From NCBI GenBank assembly GCA_040768125.1, contig JAXGNG010000002.1, forward strand, positions 359,291-423,290: 64,000 bases of DNA. Reading direction: 5' to 3'. Origin of the DNA: Spirochaetota bacterium. GTDB lineage: Bacteria; Spirochaetota; UBA4802; UBA5550. Below, in pieces: positions 20,169 through 31,124 of this stretch; position 1 is the stretch's first letter; each line of letters opens with the position of its first letter. The notes below the pieces were generated by a model that was not told where the DNA came from, ran no database searches, and saw only the letters and a list, made by a program, of their open reading frames with translations. The translations under genes and the position numbers were made by a program.

Positions 20169-21374
20169 TTATGCGCCGGAAATTGACTGGGCCAGGAGGT
20201 TGACCGGGTGGAGGACCTTGTATTCGGTGTGACGGGAAATCTGGAGATTGCATGTTTCGCAATCGGTGACCACAAATTCGGGATTGGCCTGTTCGATCAG
20301 CTGAACGAGCTGCGACGCGATGTCGGTGCTTATGGCGTGGTACTCTTTCTTGAATCCATAGGTTCCCGCGATGCCGCAGCATTCCGAATGAAGGATGACA
20401 AGATCGAGGCCCGGTATCCTCTTCAGCACATTGATGGTGTAGATCACGCCGCCCTGGCGCTCCAGGTGGCACGGCGAATGGTACGCCACGCGGAGAGGGA
20501 CGGGCTTCAGATCCGGAAGGTTGCCCGCCTCGAACTGGTCGAAGAGGAACTTGGTGATGTATTCAACGTCGTTGTAAATGGCGCCGTTGTCGAGATCGAG
20601 AAAGTGCGAGTACTCGTGCTTCAGGGCGTAGGAACAGCTCGATGATGTCGACACGATTTTTCCCCCCGTGGCGGCTTTACGTACGGAGAGGTTCTTAATG
20701 TTATGGAGGGCGTTTGCCTTCGCCTTTTCAATGTACCCGTTCGCGATGAGGGGAACGCCGCAGCATTTCTCCCTTGTGATCTCGACCCCGATGTTCATGG
20801 CGTTGAGAACCCTTACCAGGTCCATCCCGAGTTCGTGGTCGTTGTAGTTGACGAAGCATCCATGGAAATAGGTCACCCGTTTTTCATAGCGCGCCTGGTC
20901 GCCCCTGAGCCTTCTGAATTTTCTCGCGAAGGTCCCCGATGCATAGGACGGGAAGACGCTCTGTGAGGGGATTTTCATCACGAGGTCCATGAGGAGCTTG
21001 ACCGGTGGAAAACGCAGGAAAAAATTAACGATGGAGCTGAACCGCGTTGCGATGGAGCCCACGAGGTCGGTTCGGCTCATGAAGAAATCGCGGGGCCTGA
21101 AGAATCCGCGTTTTACGTAATTCCATTTTGCCATCTGGATGATGCTGGCGATCTGCACGCCCGAGGGGCAGACCGTCTCGCAGCGCTTGCAGTTCGAGCA
21201 GTATTTCAGCGACGCGTCGACCAGGAGCGGGTCCTTGATGCGCAGGCGCTCGGTGTCGGGACCCGATTGTTTCGGGCCGGGGAAGAGGTGGGTCACGCGC
21301 GCCACGGGGCAGTAGATGGTGCACACCGTGCATTTGATGCACTGGTCGAAGCTGATGTTCTCGAGTCGTATCAT
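20169..21374 (-). CDS. glpC: anaerobic glycerol-3-phosphate dehydrogenase subunit C
   Basis: Two Cys clusters (CIKCTVCTIYCP, CSNCKRCETVCP) plus CCG-type Cys-rich domains. Confidence 0.85.
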   Translation of the reverse strand: MIRLENISFDQCIKCTVCTIYCPVARVTHLFPGPKQSGPDTERLRIKDPLLVDASLKYCSNCKRCETVCPSGVQIASIIQMAKWNYVKRGFFRPRDFFMSRTDLVGSIATRFSSIVNFFLRFPPVKLLMDLVMKIPSQSVFPSYASGTFARKFRRLRGDQARYEKRVTYFHGCFVNYNDHELGMDLVRVLNAMNIGVEITREKCCGVPLIANGYIEKAKANALHNIKNLSVRKAATGGKIVSTSSSCSYALKHEYSHFLDLDNGAIYNDVEYITKFLFDQFEAGNLPDLKPVPLRVAYHSPCHLERQGGVIYTINVLKRIPGLDLVILHSECCGIAGTYGFKKEYHAISTDIASQLVQLIEQANPEFVVTDCETCNLQISRHTEYKVLHPVNLLAQSISGA

Positions 21375-22672
21375 TTTTGCCGCATCGCCCCTTTCCCGGT
21401 AATCATGAGGGCCGCGTGATATCCCGTGGCGATGGCGACCCCCCCGCCGGAGGCCTCCCTGATGGGGTTGTAGTCGCCGAGAATGGAACCCGCGCAGTAG
21501 AGATTGTTGACCATGTTCCCCTTCGCGTCGATGGCCTTCAGGTTGTCGTCGGTCTGGACGCCGTATTCGAGGAAGGGATGACTCGAAGGTTCAAAAAAAC
21601 GCGCGGCATACCAGTCATTCCTCTTCTGAGGGGCGTTGACGGACAGATTCAGTACCGGTTCCTCGATCCTGTTGAATTCGCTCCTCAGGCCGCTGCTGAA
21701 GAAGCTCCCCGTGGCAAGCACAAAGGAGGACGAATGGTGGCGCGTGGTGCCGTAACTTTTGGTGTGAACATGATCAACCGAGCCGTTCACGATCTCGCCG
21801 CCCGTTACCGTGTCTCCGATGGAGAATTCACCCCCAAGGGCCGCGAATCGTCTTTTCAGTGCGTCATCGATCCTCATCCCCATGATCGACGGGGGCAGAG
21901 AGGGGACCTCGTAGATGATGCGTCCCGTCAACTCCTCGAGTCGTGCGTGGATTGCCCCGAAGTTGCGTATGCCGAGAAAAGAGGGGAGACAGACGATACC
22001 GGCCTTCCCCGCTACGGCGTTGATTTCGCCGGCGATGCGTGGAAGATATTTTTCCGTCTCGAAGATGCGCGCAAGGTCAATGGACCTGAATTCGTGGGGA
22101 TTTCTTTCGGGCCGGGCCAGGCGGGGTATCCTTATGCGCCCCGTGATGATTTCGGTGTCGGCGAAAAGGGGCTGGCGCTTGAGCTGCTCCACCGCGATTT
22201 CCGCGTAGTAGTCGCGGTATCCCTCGAAGTTGAGTATCGCGATCGGGATTTTGTTCTCCCACGCGGAGCGGATGCGCTCGTTGAACACGCTCGCCTGGGA
22301 GAGGTACGTGGGCTTCAGGGTGCCGATTCCGGTAACGTGAAAGTGGTTTTCGCGGCCGTTGCGGTGAAGGGCGATATCGCCCACGGCGGCCTCGGAGATG
22401 AAGAACTCGATTGCCTCGGCAACGACGGCGGTCCCTATTTTTGCGTAGGGGTGATGGTGATTGACCGCAGCGATCCCCTCGATGTATTCCAGGGGGGTCG
22501 CGACCGGGTTCTTTTCCGGGGTGTACCCGTAGAGGTCTATCGACCCCGATGAGAAATGAAGGGAATTGGCCCCTGAAGAAATGATGGCCGTGCGAAGGCC
22601 CTCGCGCCTGCATTTGATGCCGCAGGTGAGGCCCGCAAGGCCGCCGCCGATGATTAGACAGTCGTACGCCAT
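21371..22672 (-). CDS. glpB: anaerobic glycerol-3-phosphate dehydrogenase subunit B
   Basis: MAYDCLIIGGGLAGL FAD-binding N-terminus; sits between glpA and glpC. The ORF's upstream extension to 22798 is rejected. Confidence 0.8.
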   Translation of the reverse strand: MAYDCLIIGGGLAGLTCGIKCRREGLRTAIISSGANSLHFSSGSIDLYGYTPEKNPVATPLEYIEGIAAVNHHHPYAKIGTAVVAEAIEFFISEAAVGDIALHRNGRENHFHVTGIGTLKPTYLSQASVFNERIRSAWENKIPIAILNFEGYRDYYAEIAVEQLKRQPLFADTEIITGRIRIPRLARPERNPHEFRSIDLARIFETEKYLPRIAGEINAVAGKAGIVCLPSFLGIRNFGAIHARLEELTGRIIYEVPSLPPSIMGMRIDDALKRRFAALGGEFSIGDTVTGGEIVNGSVDHVHTKSYGTTRHHSSSFVLATGSFFSSGLRSEFNRIEEPVLNLSVNAPQKRNDWYAARFFEPSSHPFLEYGVQTDDNLKAIDAKGNMVNNLYCAGSILGDYNPIREASGGGVAIATGYHAALMITGKGAMRQK

Positions 22673-22692
22673 GATTGAGTTCGTTACTCTCC

Positions 22693-24306
22693 CTAATCTT
22701 TCAGGTTGCCGAGCCCGAAAAGTCCCTCGTATATCCAGTAGGTGAATTCCGACTCCCTGAGCGAATCGCCCCAGAGGACCGGTTTCACGCCCTTCCACCT
22801 TTCTTCGAGGAAGTCCCTGAGCAGCTTCGCGGATTCAACCGGTGTCGCGGATCCGTACTCCTGGAACAGGCCTGCGGAACGGTAGGCGCAGAGTTCTCCC
22901 TGGCATGGTCCCATGCCGATCCGCGTTCTCCGTCGAAGGTCAACCAGGTCCCTGACGTTGAGTTTTCTCAGGGCGTACTCCACCTCGCCTTCGGTGACCA
23001 TCTCGCATTCGCATATCAGGCGGTAATTTTTCCGGTCCCTTTTCAGGAACCCGTGAACGCGGTGCCCGTGTCGGTAGAGCGTGGAACCCACGACGGAGTT
23101 GGGGATGCCCGTGAAGGCCCTGACGGTTTTACCGCGTGACAGCTTTCGTTCGGAACCGGGCAGTGGAGTGCGATGGGTGGCGCAGCCCTTTTTCACGCCG
23201 AGCTTTTTCACCGCCATGTCGACGGTCATTTCCGCCATGAGGCGGTAGGTCATGAGCTTGCCGCCGGCTATGGTGATGAAGCCGTCAAGCACGTCGCGTT
23301 CCGCGTGGTCGATAAGGACGATGCCACGGCTGATGTCCCGTCCGCTGGTTTCGCCCGATACCGCGACCAGCGGACGGACACCGGCGTAGGCCCTGAGCGC
23401 CCTTGCCCGGGAAACGTTCGGGATCAGTTTCTCGCCGTCGCCAAGAAGCACATCGATCTCGTCGTCGTCCACGGTAAGATACTCGATGCAGTTGTAATCT
23501 ATCTGCCTCGACGTGGTGCCGATGATCGAAACCGTATCCCCCGGGACAATGATATCGCCGTCCGCGGGAGGCCGGCAACGGTTGATGACGATGTTGTTGA
23601 CGCGGTAGTCGATGATAAGCATGGATCCCTTCGAGGGAAACATTTTCAGCTCGATGCCCGCGGTTTCGCAAATGTGCTGCCCCCATACCCCCGAAGCGTT
23701 GATGACGATTGAACCATGGATTTCGAAGATATCGCCCCCGGCGGTCTGGCAACGGACGCCCAGGGCGCGTCCTCCCCCGGTCAGCACCTCGGTTACCTTT
23801 GTATGGTTGAAGACCCTGCCGCCGCGTTCCTCGGCGTCGAGAATATTCGACGACGTCAGTCGAAACGGGTCGACGATGCCGTCCGGTACATATATCGCGG
23901 ACAGTATTTTCTCGTTGAGATTGGGTTCGAGGCGAAGGGCCTCGTTGATGCTGACGTCCTCGGTTTTAATGCCAGCGATCCTGCATCCCGCGATGAGGTC
24001 GTGGTGGTACATCGGGTCGTCGTCGGGGAGGGTGACGAATAGCCCCCCCGTGTCCTCAATGCAGTGCCGGGCGATGTGTTTCAGTATCCTGTTCTCGGAG
24101 ATGCATTCCCTTGCGGATTCAAGGTCTTTCACGGCATAGCGCGCTCCGGAATGGAGGAGGCCGTGATTCCGCCCCGTGGCGCCATAGGCGATATCGTCCT
24201 TTTCGACGAGCGTGGCAGCTATGCCCCTCAGGGAGAGATCGCGTATAATGCCGGCTCCCGTAATACCCCCGCCGACAACGATGACTTCTGTCTCGATATT
24301 TTTCAT
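22693..24306 (-). CDS. glpA: anaerobic glycerol-3-phosphate dehydrogenase subunit A
   Basis: VIVVGGGITGAGIIRD...ATGRNHGLLHSGARYAV matches the GlpA FAD-binding region; C-terminal BFD-like Cys motif. Confidence 0.85.
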   Translation of the reverse strand: MKNIETEVIVVGGGITGAGIIRDLSLRGIAATLVEKDDIAYGATGRNHGLLHSGARYAVKDLESARECISENRILKHIARHCIEDTGGLFVTLPDDDPMYHHDLIAGCRIAGIKTEDVSINEALRLEPNLNEKILSAIYVPDGIVDPFRLTSSNILDAEERGGRVFNHTKVTEVLTGGGRALGVRCQTAGGDIFEIHGSIVINASGVWGQHICETAGIELKMFPSKGSMLIIDYRVNNIVINRCRPPADGDIIVPGDTVSIIGTTSRQIDYNCIEYLTVDDDEIDVLLGDGEKLIPNVSRARALRAYAGVRPLVAVSGETSGRDISRGIVLIDHAERDVLDGFITIAGGKLMTYRLMAEMTVDMAVKKLGVKKGCATHRTPLPGSERKLSRGKTVRAFTGIPNSVVGSTLYRHGHRVHGFLKRDRKNYRLICECEMVTEGEVEYALRKLNVRDLVDLRRRTRIGMGPCQGELCAYRSAGLFQEYGSATPVESAKLLRDFLEERWKGVKPVLWGDSLRESEFTYWIYEGLFGLGNLKD

Positions 24307-24466
24307 TGATGTGATTTCACCGGCGGCCGAAGTTCTTCAGCGAGGCCTCCGGCGTGACGGAAAAGTGCGGTGCATCGCCGCGGTGGACAATGATGCCTCC
24401 GCGAAGGACCTGTCGAAAGATACCATGACAGCAAATGCCGGAATGCGTCAAGGAAAAATGGAAGGA

Positions 24467-25453
24467 TTAATGGATTTCCGGTCCGTCGGCGTTTCCCCTG
24501 TCGCTTCCCGTTACTTTTCTGTTGTCAATCAACACTTCGAGCTCTTTGCCGCTGAACCGGTACCGCTGCGCGCAAAAGGCGCAGGTGACCTCCGCCCCGT
24601 TGTCGCGTTCCCGCATCTCTTTCAGTTCGTCCATGCTGACGTGGGCCAGGATGTCGAGTATCAGCCTCCTGCTGCAGCGGCATGCGGACTTCAGGGGTTG
24701 GGACCCAAGGATGGTCAGGGGTTCGCCGCCGAAAAGGGCCGCGAGGAACGCTTCCATGGGTTCGCCGTCTTTCAGTTTTTCGCCAAGGGAACGTTCCATC
24801 GTGGTGATGGCATTCTCCACCCGTGCCACCGACGTTTCAGGCGTATCCGGGAGGGTCTGGATGAGGACGCCCCCGGAGGAAGTGATGCCGCCGTCGTTCC
24901 CCAGGGTGAGGCCGATGATGAGGGCCGAGGGGACCTGCTCGGATATCGTCAGGTACCGTGCGACATCCGCGGCAACGTCGCCCGCCTCGAGGTGGATGAC
25001 GCCGGAGTAGGGCTCTCCATGGCCTGTTTCCCTTCGTACCGTAAGGAGGCCAGCGCCGATGCTTTTAGAAAAGCTGATGGTGTCCAGTTCACCGGTTTCA
25101 TCGGGACGGGGATTTCCGGCATAGGCCCGGATGTTCCCTCGGGCATCGGCCTGGGCATGCAGCTCCCTGATGGGACCGCTTCCCTCTATCCGGAGGACCA
25201 GGCTCTGGTCCGAAAGAGGTTTCAGGGTGGCGCTCAGAAGGGCCGTAGCGGTGATCGTCCTTCCCATCGCGACCGTTGCGTTTGGCGTGGTGCCGTGAAG
25301 GGAGGTGATTATCCGCACGGTTTCGAGCGTGGTGGCGGTGTAGGCCCTCAGGCCCAGGCCCTCGCAGAGGTAGCGCGTCAGGGTGTCGGTCCCTCTCAGG
25401 TCGTTACCCGGGGCAGAAGTCGCGGCATGGGAATGGCCGGTTGACATGGTCAT
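24467..25453 (-). CDS. hslO: redox-regulated chaperone Hsp33
   Basis: C-terminal zinc centre C-x-C ... C-x-x-C (CRCSRR...CAFCAQRY) and an Hsp33 N-domain. The start overlaps the upstream gene's stop by 4 nt. Confidence 0.85.
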   Translation of the reverse strand: MTMSTGHSHAATSAPGNDLRGTDTLTRYLCEGLGLRAYTATTLETVRIITSLHGTTPNATVAMGRTITATALLSATLKPLSDQSLVLRIEGSGPIRELHAQADARGNIRAYAGNPRPDETGELDTISFSKSIGAGLLTVRRETGHGEPYSGVIHLEAGDVAADVARYLTISEQVPSALIIGLTLGNDGGITSSGGVLIQTLPDTPETSVARVENAITTMERSLGEKLKDGEPMEAFLAALFGGEPLTILGSQPLKSACRCSRRLILDILAHVSMDELKEMRERDNGAEVTCAFCAQRYRFSGKELEVLIDNRKVTGSDRGNADGPEIH

Positions 25454-26613
25454 TTTTCACCGATCCTGATACAACCCTTGCCAGGCTGGGAGCAGGAGTA
25501 TCCGCAATTGATATTTTCATCGGAGCAGCAAGAATCGAGGAAGATATCCCATCGTGCGCGCTCCCTTGAATACAAGAGAAAGGCCCGGACAACGCATTCA
25601 TAGACGACACGACGTGTCACGAGCCCGGGTTTTCCATCCTTAACGGATTCCCCGGGTTCATCTATTGAGAAAAGGACCCGCCCCGTCAGGGGTATCTTCG
25701 TGCGGTATGCCTCTGGCTCTCCCCTGGAGATGATCTCCAGCTTCTCGATGTCGACGTTCCCCTTCTTGAGTCCGTATTCCTCCGCCAGGGATTTCTTCAG
25801 CAGTTGAAGGGCTTCCTCGTCATTGACTTCCGGCAAGGAGCCGTCGGTTGAGAGGTTCCTGCACATCGTCGGGATAAAGCACTCAACCCGGTCCTTTCCC
25901 CTGAAGACGCAGGCATCGCCCGCGTAGCGCCATTCCCCGCCCGAATTCTCAAGGGTAGAGCGCATGAGGCATTCATAGGTGGAAAGGGTATTGGTGAGAT
26001 CGTCATTACGGGAAATGACGGCCCGCGAGGTCACCAGGGTGCGGGCCGTACATCGTTCCCTGGACGCTGTTTTTTTCAACACCACGACCTCCTTCACTAC
26101 CCACCCTGGGCGGCGTTCAACGAGGCCCTGGCGGACCAGGGAGAGAGCCGTTTTGTCGTCAAGGGCGGGTAGTTTCTTTTTCGGCGCCCCGACTTCCTTC
26201 GATACCGTTTTTTCAATGCGATCGAAGATCCATTCTGTTTCAAGGCGGTAATAATGGGCATCCCATATGTCACGAAGGGGAAGACCGCATTCGTTGATGA
26301 TGATATCGACCGTTACGCGATGGACCTGCGAGGGGACCGCTATTCCGCCCTTCATTACGCTGCCGTTGCGCACACCACCGGCGTACGTGACTCTGCGTTC
26401 CGTCGTCCCATCGGGCTGTTGATAGACTGTGCGGAAATCGGCGAGAACCCGCTTTCCGGTCACGGCGCCAATCTTGCCGGGAGGGGGCGAGGGCCCGACA
26501 CCAGCGGCGGGCGGCGCGGCGGTGATCATGCCTCCGCCGGTGATGAAAGCGGAGAGGAGGACGGTAATCCAGATGAGGGCTCGTGACGTGTGATGTCCCA
26601 TTGCTTTCTCCAT
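25450..26613 (-). CDS. hypothetical membrane-anchored or secreted protein with a Cys-rich C-terminal tail
   Basis: N-terminal hydrophobic segment ALIWITVLLSAFITGGG and 13+ Cys, including the C-terminal SCCSDENINCGYSCSQPGKGC. No known domain recognised. Confidence 0.5.
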   Translation of the reverse strand: MEKAMGHHTSRALIWITVLLSAFITGGGMITAAPPAAGVGPSPPPGKIGAVTGKRVLADFRTVYQQPDGTTERRVTYAGGVRNGSVMKGGIAVPSQVHRVTVDIIINECGLPLRDIWDAHYYRLETEWIFDRIEKTVSKEVGAPKKKLPALDDKTALSLVRQGLVERRPGWVVKEVVVLKKTASRERCTARTLVTSRAVISRNDDLTNTLSTYECLMRSTLENSGGEWRYAGDACVFRGKDRVECFIPTMCRNLSTDGSLPEVNDEEALQLLKKSLAEEYGLKKGNVDIEKLEIISRGEPEAYRTKIPLTGRVLFSIDEPGESVKDGKPGLVTRRVVYECVVRAFLLYSRERARWDIFLDSCCSDENINCGYSCSQPGKGCIRIGEK

Positions 26614-26634
26614 GGCGAACAGGTCGCCGATAAT

Positions 26635-27657
26635 TCAGGCATCCCGGGCGATGAGTACGCCGGATGCCTCGACCACCGTGAAACGTATCCCGCTGAGATT
26701 AAAAAAACGTTGTATGTGACGTAGATTTTCACTGCGGTAGCCGATATATTCCCCGGTGTTGCGGGAGGGTATGAGAAACCTGATCGTGCGCACATTGTCA
26801 TTGCAAGACAGGTGCTCACGGGCCAGTACCATCATCTCGTCCCTCCGGAAGCGCGACTTGACGAGGTGTCCGAAAGAGGGGTGGTAGGGGCCGGCGATTA
26901 CCGCGTGCGCCCTTTCCGGCGTGAAGGGGTGTATGCCCATCCTGATGACCGGTATGCGGCGGAGAACGAAGATGCCGTAAATATCCCTGCAGAGCTCTAT
27001 CGCTTCCTCCAGATCGAGGGGAAAGTATTCCCCCTTTCTGTACCTCTCTTCGAGGACGGTGCCGCGGATAACGACAGTGGGATATATCCGGACAGCGGCG
27101 GGGACAAGGCCGGCCGCTATGCGCGCCGAACGAAGGGCTGAAGGCCTGGTTTCCCCAGGGAGTCCCGGCATCAGCTGTATCACGAGGTCGATGCCATGCC
27201 GCTGGATGGCCTCAACGGCAGCGTAGGTAGTCCCGGTGTCATGGCCGCGTCCCGAGGACTCGAGGACAGCGTCGTCGAAGCTCTGGACTCCCAGCTCGAT
27301 CGTCGATACACCCCGGTCCCGGAGAAAACGGAGGATTTCATCGGTGATACAATCCGGGCGCGTTGAGAGGCGGATGCCCTGGATGACGTTGGCTTCGAGG
27401 TGTCTCCGGGCCCTCGCGAGATAGGCTTCCTGGATGCGGCGATCCATGGCGGTGAAACTGCCGCCGAAAAATGCTAGTTCAACACGGTCCACGGAGGACC
27501 CGATATGCGCAGAGTACTCCGACACCAGGGCGTCGACATGGTCGGGAGAGGGTGGGGCCGCCTGTCCCGTGGCGGCCCACTGGTTGCAGAAAACGCAACG
27601 ATGCGGGCACCCGGAATGAGGGATGAAGACGGGAATAGTGATGCGCTTTTTAGCCAT
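26635..27657 (-). CDS. radical SAM protein (CxxxCxxC = CPHRCVFC)
   Basis: FIPHSGCPHRCVFCNQ cluster motif, ELAFFGGSFTA, TIM-barrel-like radical-SAM core. The ORF's N-terminal extension to 27798 is rejected. Confidence 0.75.
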   Translation of the reverse strand: MAKKRITIPVFIPHSGCPHRCVFCNQWAATGQAAPPSPDHVDALVSEYSAHIGSSVDRVELAFFGGSFTAMDRRIQEAYLARARRHLEANVIQGIRLSTRPDCITDEILRFLRDRGVSTIELGVQSFDDAVLESSGRGHDTGTTYAAVEAIQRHGIDLVIQLMPGLPGETRPSALRSARIAAGLVPAAVRIYPTVVIRGTVLEERYRKGEYFPLDLEEAIELCRDIYGIFVLRRIPVIRMGIHPFTPERAHAVIAGPYHPSFGHLVKSRFRRDEMMVLAREHLSCNDNVRTIRFLIPSRNTGEYIGYRSENLRHIQRFFNLSGIRFTVVEASGVLIARDA

Positions 27658-27775
27658 GATACAAAACCGGCACTGAGTGGCGACTGACGGCAATCGGCCG
27701 TCGGTATCGAGCCTAGATGGTGGTTTCGAATATTCAAGGATTTTTTCAAAAAGATTGGCCACATTATAAAAAATA

Positions 27776-27804
27776 TTGACATTGCGGCGCCATTTCAATT
27801 AATG
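27776..27804 (+). promoter_or_regulatory. sigma70-like promoter candidate (TTGACA-N17-TTAATG) for the fmdB-like gene
   Basis: Consensus -35 with a plausible -10 about 50 nt upstream of the ATG at 27856. Part of the 18-nt motif shared with 63468–63487. Confidence 0.3.
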
Positions 27805-27855
27805 CCACGCAAGGGCTCTTGCCCGTAATCGCATCAGGGAAAGGGAGTATAGGGT

Positions 27856-28134
27856 ATGCCCACATATGAATACGAATGCCTTGAGTGCAAAGACAGGTTC
27901 GAGCTTTTCCAGTCGATGAACGACGAGCCGGTTCGCACGTGCGCGAAGTGCAACGGCAGGGTACGGAAGCTCTTCAGCTCAGCCGGGATCATATTCAAGG
28001 GATCCGGATTTTACGTGAATGATTACAAGAACCCAGGGAAAAAAGAAGGTGCGGGTTCCTCGTCGGAAGGCGCGTTGTGTCCTGCCGCCGGGAACTGTTC
28101 GGCAACCTGCCCCGCCGGGGCTTCGTCGGAGTGA
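27856..28134 (+). CDS. FmdB-family zinc-ribbon protein
   Basis: MPTYEYECLECKDRFELFQSMNDEPVRTCAKCNGRVRKLFSSAGIIFKGSGFY is the canonical FmdB CxxC...CxxC N-terminus. Confidence 0.75.
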   Translation: MPTYEYECLECKDRFELFQSMNDEPVRTCAKCNGRVRKLFSSAGIIFKGSGFYVNDYKNPGKKEGAGSSSEGALCPAAGNCSATCPAGASSE

Positions 28135-28212
28135 GTGCCGGCCAATAAAGCCCATGTCCATGCTGTTGCTGCAAGAGCGCTCCGCGAGGGGCGCTCTTTT
28201 TTGTATAGGCAC

Positions 28213-30078
28213 TTACTTTCTCGATTTAACTTTTTTCATCATCTGGGATTTTTTCTGGGTATACAGGGACATCAGGTATTTTTCAATGTTGAGCAGCGCC
28301 TGCGGGGTCATTTTTTCATCCTTTATCTTTTCACCCGCAAGGGAATCGATGAATTCGCGGATGAGCTCCGGGGACTGGACCAGATCAGTATCGACCATAA
28401 GGTATTCGATGTCCGGGATCAGGTAAAGCTGGCTCCGGTTTGGGTAGAGCACTTTCCGCGCATTGTAAATCGGGATCACGATTTTCAGGTTGAGCTTCCT
28501 GACATCCTGGATTATCGTTTCTATCCGGTCCTCGTTGGCGGGAAGGAGGTCAATGTGGTTCGAAAGGGGGATTATTTTCTGGCCGCTGTTTCTGATTTTA
28601 TTGAGTATGTTTTTTGCCTCTCCGGTCGCCATGGGACGATAGGCCTCATGGTCATGGCCCTGCTGCCGGGTGGTTCCCGCGTGTGAATCTTCCTTCCTCG
28701 ACGAGAAAATAGACCTGAAGAAATCGGTAATCGATTCAAATATCGATTTGTTTTTTTTCACCTCGCGCTCATCGCGCTCCACCGCCGCCCCGAGGGCAAG
28801 GCTGTTCTGGTAATTGTCGTACTCATCGATCATGCGTCGCATTCGGTTGATCGACTCAACGTTGCCGATGAAGGCCTTCGCCCGCTCCTCGGAGCCCATG
28901 AGATTCCTTCCCGCGTTGAAGAGTATGCCGGTCTCGTCCAGGATCCTTTCCTTTTCCGTTTGGGTCGCGCCGGCGAGGGCGTCCGGACCCGAAACGACAA
29001 GGGCGTGGAGTTCCTCCATGCGCGAAAGAAGCCGGTCGCCGTCGATGAGGTAATGCACCCCGTCTTCATCCCTGAAGAGGGCGATCCTGTGCTGGGGTCC
29101 CTGCGCGCCGGCCCATTCGATGACGGACTGCTCGGTGAGCCCGTTGAAAAGCGATGTGATCGCCGAGACGGAACAGAACCGGCTTTCCCTCACGTGCGCG
29201 GCGATATCGGCGCCTGCGGTGACGATTGGATCGATCAGGGTTTCCACCTTGAGAAGGCAGGAGCGCAGGGAGTTGAAATTCTTGACCTCGGTCTGCTCCG
29301 CGTTGGAAAGAGAGGGGAATATATCCTGCAGAAGAACACTCAGTATGTAGTCCAGTTTCGTATCGCGGTAGTCGCTGAATTCGGCATTGAGAATCCCGAA
29401 ATTTTTCAGGCGCCGGAGGACGGGGGCGGTGTGGTGCGCGATCACCTTGTTGAGGCGCTCCATGGTGAGGGCGTCCTTGACCGACTCGTAGTTGTCCCTG
29501 TGGAAGCAGAAATCCTCGGCAGTTTCAACGCCCTGACGGTCGATTGAATAATGCTTGTAGGTGAACACTCCGGTATTGAGCTCGCCCTTGATGGCCTGCG
29601 TGAGGAGGGCGCGTTCACCGGTTTTTCTCAAAAGCTTGGTGAGATTGAAAAGCCTGAACTGGGATATGAGCTCGAGAAAATTACGGGCCGATACGCGGTT
29701 GCGCTCGTTCTGTATCCGGTTGAATTCATCGTGGCTAAGCAGTATCGAGAATTCCCTGTTTTCCGCTATCGAAAGCTTTTTGGATTCCGGTTCGACGGCA
29801 AACGAGAACGAGACAATGCTTTTAACCTCGCCGGGATAGGTTTTCGTGAGAATTGTCATGTGATTGACGATCATCTTGTTGCGGGCGATGGTGAAGGGAA
29901 TCTTTATGTTTCGCGACGTCTTCAGATCCTCCATCGTCGCGAGGCGTCCCAGACCCGTTGTGAGATAATTGGTCTGGAATGCCATGATCTCGTTGAGGAC
30001 CTCAAAGATATGCGGCTCGCGCGCGATGTGCGAGTGAAGGAAGGGGAATCTTTTGTCCTGTACGTTTTCTTTCGGCAT
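28213..30078 (-). CDS. large (621 aa) hypothetical cytoplasmic protein with no recognisable domain
   Basis: Long ORF with coding-like composition but visibly lower GC than its neighbours. Start set at MPKENVQ (30078). Confidence 0.55.
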   Translation of the reverse strand: MPKENVQDKRFPFLHSHIAREPHIFEVLNEIMAFQTNYLTTGLGRLATMEDLKTSRNIKIPFTIARNKMIVNHMTILTKTYPGEVKSIVSFSFAVEPESKKLSIAENREFSILLSHDEFNRIQNERNRVSARNFLELISQFRLFNLTKLLRKTGERALLTQAIKGELNTGVFTYKHYSIDRQGVETAEDFCFHRDNYESVKDALTMERLNKVIAHHTAPVLRRLKNFGILNAEFSDYRDTKLDYILSVLLQDIFPSLSNAEQTEVKNFNSLRSCLLKVETLIDPIVTAGADIAAHVRESRFCSVSAITSLFNGLTEQSVIEWAGAQGPQHRIALFRDEDGVHYLIDGDRLLSRMEELHALVVSGPDALAGATQTEKERILDETGILFNAGRNLMGSEERAKAFIGNVESINRMRRMIDEYDNYQNSLALGAAVERDEREVKKNKSIFESITDFFRSIFSSRKEDSHAGTTRQQGHDHEAYRPMATGEAKNILNKIRNSGQKIIPLSNHIDLLPANEDRIETIIQDVRKLNLKIVIPIYNARKVLYPNRSQLYLIPDIEYLMVDTDLVQSPELIREFIDSLAGEKIKDEKMTPQALLNIEKYLMSLYTQKKSQMMKKVKSRK

Positions 30079-30230
30079 GATCGTTTGACATGAAAGAGGC
30101 CGTTTCACGGCCATTTTTTCGGCGCGCGACGACGCGGTGCCGATTCGCCCACAAGGATGAAATCCCCGCAGGGAGCCCTTGTCGCGACGGTATCAATGAT
30201 TGGAAATCAAAGGGGCTTTTGTCAATACTT

Positions 30231-31013
30231 TTAACGCTCCCCCGGACCGTGGATCATCGGAACAAAACGGACGTAGGTGACGGTTTTCCTCGTCACATTG
30301 CCGTTTCGTTTTGTGAGGGTCACCAGTTCCTGGGCGTAATCCCCCACGGGAGCGACCAGTATGCCTCCCCCTGCGAGCTGGTCGATGAGACTCTGGGGGA
30401 TCGAAGGCGGCGCGGCGGTGAGAATTATCACGTCGAAGGGCGCCTCATCGGGCCAGCCCCCGTATCCATCGCCGATGCGCACCTGGACGTTGTCATAGCC
30501 AAGTTCTTTCAGCTTCAACCGCGCGCTTTTACCCAGGGGCTCGACGATCTCTATGCTGAATACCGATTTCGCGAGAAGGGAAAGGATAGCGGCCTGGTAA
30601 CCGGAGCCCGTGCCGATTTCGAGGATTTTCTCGTCCCCCTGGAGATCACAGAGCTCGGTCATGAGGGCCACGATATAGGGCTGGGAAATGGTCTGCCCGT
30701 GGCCTATGGGCAGGGGGTGATCCTCGTAGGCGCTTGCGTGATGGTGACCCGGCACGAATTTATGGCGTTCTACCTCCCGCATGGCCCTGAGCACGCCCTC
30801 GTCCCTGACGCCGCGGTCTTCTATCTGGGTTTTCACCATGCGCTCGCGAAGCTGTTCCATCGATGTCTCTCCTCCGCCGCGACCGCATGACGGCACGGTT
30901 GCGGCAATGATGCAGTAAAGCAATGGGGCGAGGACGCCCTGAAGCGCATGCCCGCGCCGGGCCGATAGTCCGCGGTTCCCGATGATGTGTATCTGATTGG
31001 TTATAGTCGTCAT
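30231..31013 (-). CDS. pcm: protein-L-isoaspartate O-methyltransferase, possibly with an N-terminal signal or lipoprotein leader
   Basis: PIMT motifs LEIGTGSGYQAAILS, TISQPYIVALM and DVIILTAAPP. Confidence 0.8.
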   Translation of the reverse strand: MTTITNQIHIIGNRGLSARRGHALQGVLAPLLYCIIAATVPSCGRGGGETSMEQLRERMVKTQIEDRGVRDEGVLRAMREVERHKFVPGHHHASAYEDHPLPIGHGQTISQPYIVALMTELCDLQGDEKILEIGTGSGYQAAILSLLAKSVFSIEIVEPLGKSARLKLKELGYDNVQVRIGDGYGGWPDEAPFDVIILTAAPPSIPQSLIDQLAGGGILVAPVGDYAQELVTLTKRNGNVTRKTVTYVRFVPMIHGPGER

Positions 31014-31124
31014 GGCGCCGGTCCCGCCTGGAATCCTTCCCATGGTCACGCCATACGCGCGGGAAAAATTATCTTGAAATAATCCGCCTTTCCTGCATGT
31101 CATGGTAGCGTGCGTGGAGAGCAC

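Follow-up and report, generated by a model that had tools for sequence, protein, structure and literature searches.

A stretch of DNA of 64,000 nucleotides (nt) from a Spirochaetota bacterium (assembly GCA_040768125.1, contig JAXGNG010000002.1, positions 359,291 to 423,290 of the forward strand), called the window below, carries three consecutive genes on its minus strand, which encode a radical S-adenosylmethionine (SAM) enzyme, a presumably exported protein with a cysteine-rich C-terminus, and the redox-switch chaperone Hsp33. The close packing of these genes raises the question of whether their products work together or only share a transcript. The proteins are referred to here as rSAM, MID (the middle protein of the trio, open reading frame (ORF) 25450-26613) and Hsp33 (gene hslO). 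Taken together, the evidence described below indicates that the trio is probably an operon restricted to one lineage of uncultured, probably anaerobic Spirochaetota, with genes whose products are independent of each other biochemically. According to this proposal, the three genes would be co-transcribed, and their products would differ both in compartment and in substrate. A cytoplasmic, single-cluster enzyme of the Elp3 type would act on tRNA or on another nucleic-acid or small-molecule substrate; MID, exported by the Sec pathway to the periplasm or the surface and stapled by disulfides, would bind a ligand or a protein in the envelope; and Hsp33 would be the canonical cytoplasmic chaperone with its zinc/redox switch. 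We infer that the three products have no direct biochemical connection. When genes are packed tightly into an operon in a narrow clade, it does not follow that one product is the substrate of another, and if the proposal is true, the locus is mostly ordinary, consisting of two well-known families and one lineage-specific exported protein.

The order rSAM-MID-hslO was read from the ORF listing over 21000-31000 and from the minus strand over 24300-27900. The rSAM gene (26635-27657, minus strand) encodes an Elp3-like radical SAM enzyme of 340 amino acids (aa) from the start ATG MAKKR, with a Radical_SAM and a Radical_SAM_C domain, and the NCBI protein P0009 (340 aa) is 100% identical to it. It is followed by the gene of MID (25450-26613, minus strand), an uncharacterized protein for which export is predicted, and by hslO (24467-25453, minus strand; 328 aa), which is identified by PF01430, NF001033 and its zinc motif. 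As read from the sequence, the MID stop and the hslO start overlap in an ATGA at 25450-25453 on the minus strand, so that the three co-directional genes and the overlap reported in the first-pass annotation, which was made from the letters of the DNA, are confirmed. The gap of 21 nt that it gave between rSAM and MID holds for the distance from the rSAM stop (26635) to the first MID ATG (26613). MID has two in-frame ATGs, at 26613 and at 26601, and the downstream one (MGHHT...) is probably the likelier start, because a GGAG lies 7 nt upstream of it, the NCBI model P0001 has 383 aa, and the conservation among homologues begins there. With this start, MID has 383 rather than 387 aa and the spacer is 33 nt rather than 21.

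It is very likely that the trio forms a single operon, since its order recurs in 9 of the 12 MID-bearing species of GTDB and also in a more distant contig (L029) that has different flanks. The operon is probably transcribed from the divergent intergenic region between rSAM and the FmdB zinc-ribbon gene (27658-27855). Two sigma-70-like matches were found there on the minus strand, at 27798-27770 and 27683-27656; these are weak evidence, the number of promoter-like sites in the scanned region (3) being near chance when compared with the expectation from shuffled sequence (1.5 +/- 1.4). The same promoter/terminator scan, with counts near the shuffle expectation, gave no terminator-like site on the minus strand, either inside the operon or behind it, and no Rfam match was obtained between 20000 and 32000.

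The nine proteins of the window were mapped by tblastn onto the loci of all relatives, and the conservation of the trio, which the earlier annotation had proposed as a check, was borne out within limits. When 185,579 species genomes of GTDB were scanned, 12 MID loci were found, all of them in metagenome-assembled genomes of Spirochaetota or 'Leptospirales'. The order PCMT, 633-aa unknown protein, FmdB zinc ribbon, rSAM, MID and Hsp33 is kept in nine of the 12 species. In 11 of the 12, and in L029, rSAM is the gene immediately upstream of MID, with gaps of -17 to about 39 nt. Also, the 4-nt overlap of MID and hslO was found again in L005, L008 and L029, and in the other relatives the two genes are 1-62 nt apart. 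L029 is a distant metagenomic contig in which compact rSAM, MID and Hsp33 genes abut or overlap, with identities to the window of 50% for rSAM, 35% for MID and 50% for Hsp33. Its flanks, an MCP gene and, on the other strand, a TPP-enzyme gene, are unlike those of the window.

Each link of the trio is absent at one locus or another. In L021 and L026, the rSAM-MID pair is present and Hsp33 is absent from the locus, with opposite-strand genes following directly after MID. In L028, neither rSAM nor Hsp33 adjoins MID, and YjbQ and TatD come next. In L030, the order is MID-Hsp33-GlpA, with a MID of only 24% identity and with glycosidase fragments and a transposase in the place of rSAM; the GlpA that follows Hsp33 there is 73% identical to that of the window. 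Farther away in sequence is a MID-like subfamily (P0145-P0155), whose genes stand alone among unrelated genes in L031-L034. The reverse case also occurs: in L014 and L015/16, where the rSAM orthologues are 47% identical, neither MID nor Hsp33 is near, and the zinc ribbon, a protein of about 615 aa and PCMT are retained. Therefore, the trio is a real operon that has persisted in one clade, and every link in it is dispensable somewhere. Most of the trio loci have about ten flanking genes in common, and their agreement is for this reason largely a matter of shared ancestry within a narrow clade.

The first component, rSAM, is a member of the radical SAM superfamily, having the CX3CX2C motif (C17-x3-C21-x2-C24) and a match to PF04055 (E 6.4e-24, 85.4 bits against a cutoff of 29.5). 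Its C-terminal part matches PF16199 (Radical_SAM_C, E 6.5e-19). The three cysteines of the motif are the only invariant ones in 28 orthologues, and the remaining three cysteines of the window protein are not conserved in that alignment. Pfam, NCBIfam and the alignment of 28 orthologues all gave no SPASM/twitch domain and no auxiliary-cluster cysteines. The top NCBIfam match was TIGR01212 (MnmL/YtqA/YhcC; E 1e-26), of which the alignment is limited to residues 84-226 and the score of 93.8 bits is far below the cutoff of 180; TIGR01211 (Elp3), with a cutoff of 350, gave 93.3 bits. Among the 25 best-matching NCBIfam models, rSAM passes the curated cutoff of none. The best PDB sequence matches are bacterial and archaeal Elp3 (E 1.3e-21). 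Moreover, in the AlphaFold2 (AF2) model built from the 28 orthologues (pLDDT 92.4, pTM 0.90), the C-terminal module of about 80 aa was modelled as a helix with a small alpha/beta unit, and the top 11 PDB matches in Foldseek were all Elp3 (E 1e-13 to 2e-15, TMq 0.55-0.66). Only one maturase of ribosomally synthesized and post-translationally modified peptides (RiPPs), SkfB, occurred in the top 50 matches, at rank 37, and anSME did not occur among them. More than 7,880 clusters belong to the rSAM family at E<=1e-10, of which the best 120 have about 290-420 aa and the same two Pfam domains.

Comparison with characterized enzymes indicates that rSAM belongs to neither of the two named families nearest to it. 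With Elp3 (Dehalococcoides mccartyi, PDB 5l7j/6ia6; eukaryotic Elp123, 8asw/8pty) it shares the core, Radical_SAM_C and the single CX3CX2C cluster. However, the 340-aa protein is without the C-terminal lysine-acetyltransferase (KAT/GNAT) domain that Elp3 needs, for which neither Pfam nor NCBIfam gave a match, and it has its own C-terminal module instead. It resembles MnmL/YtqA/YhcC in being a stand-alone radical SAM protein of about 300-340 aa with Radical_SAM_C and without an acetyltransferase domain, but scores below the family cutoff, and its conserved neighbors are FmdB, the 615-633-aa protein and PCMT, not mnmM. MnmL often shares an operon with MnmM; no methylase adjoins rSAM, and no mnmM-like neighbor occurs, at the loci examined. 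Elp3 is a tRNA-modifying enzyme (U34 cm5). MnmL/YtqA acts in tRNA modification as well, in the mnm5s2U pathway (bioRxiv 10.1101/2023.12.21.572861; on MnmL/YtqA/YhcC see also 10.64898/2026.05.18.725915). By analogy, rSAM most likely acts on tRNA or on another nucleic-acid or small-molecule substrate and not on a peptide, and this class of substrate is the most economical suggestion because the characterized relatives modify tRNA. The enzyme is a widespread Elp3-type housekeeping enzyme with a single cluster.

The second component, MID, has no match in Pfam or NCBIfam, and a search of PDB sequences with a MID profile gave none even at E<=1. The number of clusters found was 8 by a word-indexed search, 12 by a profile and 21 by an exhaustive hidden Markov model search of 1.84 billion representatives; in a metagenome pattern scan, a five-sequence profile returned one locus only. 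In all members, the lone hydrophobic segment is N-terminal and preceded by basic residues (KD19 1.6-2.2, against <=1.5 elsewhere), and an invariant Ala-Pro comes after it in the 14 close members. A probable Sec signal peptide therefore spans residues 1-32 (26518-26613, minus strand), with cleavage likely before the Ala-Pro. MID had been described as membrane-anchored or secreted; the single N-terminal segment fits a cleavable Sec signal peptide better than an anchor. Other routes were considered and rejected: a lipoprotein, the signal-peptide region having no conserved cysteine; Tat export, for which the twin-arginine motif is absent; and a C-terminal sorting signal, given a polar tail that ends in GEK.

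The AF2 model of MID (pLDDT 80.3, residues 1-46 disordered) consists, after the signal peptide and a disordered linker, of three tandem units, each formed by one helix and a four-stranded antiparallel sheet. The helix is packed in the curved antiparallel sheet, as in the alpha+beta cone of cystatin/NTF2-like proteins, and Foldseek returned tandem NTF2-like and cystatin proteins, weakly (E 2.7e-3 or weaker). The likeness to fetuin-B/multicystatin, to VirB8-like OrfG and to the intermembrane-space domain of ARC6/PARC6 is at the level of the fold, with no detectable sequence similarity. Domains 2 and 3 are homologous to each other (profile-profile comparison, E 3.3e-5); homology of domain 1 with either of them was unsupported by hhalign (E 0.17-0.3), which leaves a kinship at fold level only. 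A function in binding a ligand or a protein in the envelope is likely for MID. These proteins constitute a small uncharacterized family of putative disulfide-rich envelope proteins made of tandem cystatin/NTF2-like domains. The family is absent from Pfam, comprises about 21 clusters at 50% identity and is found in uncultured Spirochaetota as well as in a small number of other lineages.

The cysteines of MID were at the center of the earlier claims. The C-terminal knot at residues 361-387 (25453-25533, minus strand; SCCx6CGxSCSxPxKGCxRxGEK) is present in the translation, which ends in ...SCCSDENINCGYSCSQPGKGCIRIGEK, and the dense cluster described there is therefore real. It is not the only seat of conserved cysteines: mature MID of the window has exactly 12, all invariant in 14 family members, and seven of these lie in the body of the protein. 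The five in the tail are C362, C363, C370, C374 and C381. Domains 2 and 3 each have a YEC...W...C core followed by a cysteine knot, formed by C235/C245/C251 after domain 2 and by the five tail cysteines after domain 3. Since a homologue of the tail knot follows domain 2, the cysteine-rich tail is to be seen as a structural appendage that occurs twice, here in its second copy, and not as a free peptide. The cystatin/NTF2-like fold matches have no counterpart of these appendages.

When the comparison is extended to 16 proteins, so that the distant stand-alone subfamily is included, C109, C188, C235, C245 and C340 are present in 16 of 16, C215, C251 and C381 in 15, C363, C370 and C374 in 14, and C362 in 10. 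The divergent homologue P0149 (L030, 3490-4581) is without both C215 and C251, and its number of cysteines stays even, at 10. Because both were lost together, the alignment suggests that C215 and C251 form a disulfide pair. Most likely, the 12 cysteines would form about six structural disulfides in two homologous knots, one behind domain 2 and one behind domain 3. This explanation is the best one, since the set is conserved and even-numbered in an exported multidomain protein, and is mostly kept where no rSAM or Hsp33 is adjacent. In the stand-alone MID-like proteins P0151 (667 aa), P0153 (541 aa) and P0147 (451 aa), most of the conserved pattern is likewise kept, and long additional C-terminal extensions resemble repeated cysteine modules, the two longest proteins having 21-32 cysteines.

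The product of hslO, the third component, matches PF01430 with E 2.7e-70 (237.4 bits against a cutoff of 21.4) and passes the full-length HSP33 model NF001033 (246.3 bits against 244), and its zinc center CxC...CxxC is intact in the translation (...SACRCSRR..., 27 residues, ...TCAFCAQ...). It has 328 aa in the window and in the closest relatives, with short N- and C-terminal extensions, whereas the clade's more distant members have 307-310 aa. Compared with the known Hsp33/HslO, it matches over the full length, and its co-encoding with MID is confined to this clade. The protein is thus a canonical, cytoplasmic, redox-regulated Hsp33 that is unusual only in its neighbor.

Several observations weigh against the proposal of independent genes. 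The adjacency that has been kept, with overlapping or abutting genes and including L029, exceeds what an accidental neighborhood would give, and a functional or regulatory coupling is possible. The shared flanks make the conservation at most loci non-independent evidence, whether for or against such a coupling. Additionally, rSAM scores below the cutoffs of TIGR01211 and TIGR01212 alike and belongs to a subfamily without an assigned substrate. The host, judged from its glpABC and 2-hydroxyacyl-CoA dehydratase neighbors, is probably an anaerobe, which bears on the predicted disulfides of MID.

The alternative that survives best is a redox-stress module, close to the oxidative-stress module named in the first-pass annotation. 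Here the operon would be induced by oxidative stress, and the link between its products would be regulatory and physiological rather than one of enzyme and substrate. Exported MID with its 12 cysteines would be a thiol/disulfide buffer, a sensor or an oxidant sink of the periplasm, Hsp33 would protect cytoplasmic proteins, and the oxygen-labile rSAM would be co-regulated. Hsp33 with its intact zinc motif is the canonical redox-switch chaperone, PCMT, a protein-repair gene, lies nearby, the ATGA overlap recurs in three relatives, and the MID-Hsp33 adjacency has survived both in L029 and in L030, where rSAM is gone. However, no regulator and no operator were identified, MID has no Hsp33 beside it in 3 of the 12 species, and the distant MID-like genes stand alone. 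Even the adjacency in L030 may be inherited synteny only, as GlpA still follows Hsp33 there. Strictly invariant, even-numbered cysteines in a folded multidomain protein also suit structural disulfides better than a sacrificial buffer. On this balance the module is considered unlikely.

A broader form of coupling would make the trio a true functional module, either with rSAM recruited to modify the cysteine knot of MID or with MID and Hsp33 as an oxidative-stress defence of two compartments that is switched on together. Only a small probability is assigned to it; it is kept in consideration because the compact trio persists in L029 between other flanks, and MID-Hsp33 persists in L030 at 24% identity of MID.

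The chance is slimmer still that the cysteines of MID bind Zn, Cu or Fe in a periplasmic metal-binding or metallochaperone-like protein. The spacings CCx6CxxxC and Cx9Cx5C resemble metal-binding knots, and in a host that its neighboring genes mark as a probable anaerobe the periplasm may be less oxidising. But MID is without a twin-arginine signal for export in a cofactor-loaded state, its knots have no conserved His or Asp partners, it matches no metal-binding family, and the paired loss of cysteines in P0149 points to a disulfide.

The weakest alternative, the main idea of which comes from the first-pass annotation, is that rSAM modifies the tail cysteines of MID by a thioether cross-link or an anSME-like oxidation, that this happens in the cytoplasm ahead of Sec export, and that Hsp33 holds the unfolded client; it is very improbable, for although rSAM is directly upstream of MID in nearly all species and the close MID family shows strict conservation of the tail motif, the enzyme has three invariant cysteines only and a fold closest to Elp3, with peptide maturases ranking far lower, its 47%-identity orthologues keep their other neighbors without MID, its family is hundreds of times larger than that of MID (>7,880 clusters against 21), the cysteine pattern is kept without adjacent rSAM in L028, in L030 and in the stand-alone subfamily, and the tail has a homologous knot inside the protein. 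Among radical SAM enzymes, the SPASM/twitch maturases (anSME, AlbA, SkfB) can act on cysteine-containing substrates encoded alongside them, and anSME acts before Sec export. Compared with these systems, the supposed substrate is a folded three-domain protein of 355 aa, and rSAM is usually found without it. Nor does MID (383-387 aa) resemble a RiPP precursor, as it consists of three folded domains and not of a short leader and core, and its tail packs with domain 3. The first-pass annotation had named beforehand the lack of any partner-dependent subfamily signature in rSAM as an outcome that would speak against its proposal, and such a signature is absent. In line with its remark that it did not recognise the trio as a described system, no PADLOC model fits, and no paper on the trio came up when the literature was searched for Hsp33/hslO together with radical SAM and operon. 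A defence system was also considered and rejected, as PADLOC gave only a weak generic radical SAM match (PDC-M51A, 31 bits) for rSAM and none for MID, Hsp33 or the 633-aa protein.

Upstream of the operon lies a block at 27856-31124 that includes the FmdB zinc-ribbon gene (27856-28134, plus strand), the gene of the 633-aa protein (28213-30114, minus strand), which has no Pfam, NCBIfam or PADLOC match, and PCMT (30231-31124, minus strand). This block also adjoins rSAM at loci that have neither MID nor Hsp33, namely L014 and L015/16, where the 633-aa protein is 38-39% and PCMT 56-57% identical to that of the window. The neighborhood of FmdB, the 633-aa protein, PCMT and rSAM is thus conserved more deeply than the trio, and it may be a better lead than the trio to the function of the orphan rSAM subfamily of about 340 aa.

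Downstream of hslO, the minus strand carries the operon of the anaerobic glycerol-3-phosphate dehydrogenase, with glpA at 22693-24306, glpB at 21371-22798 and glpC at 20169-21374. The glpA gene begins 160 nt past hslO, and the gap has no terminator-like site. Just past glpC, a 2-hydroxyacyl-CoA dehydratase (HGD-D) and its activator BcrAD_BadFG are encoded in L001 (14376-17149) and L002 (8468-11241), in keeping with a strictly anaerobic, fermentative lifestyle of the clade. In L010, L012 and L019-L026, the glp genes are replaced by a different, inverted set of DAO, FAD_binding_2, Fer4 and CCG genes, the GlpA- and GlpB-like products of which are 27-41% identical to those of the window. The stand-alone MID-like genes of L031-L034 have as neighbors a serpin, a PLD-like protein, a 4HBT thioesterase, a FadL-like outer membrane protein and sigma-70.

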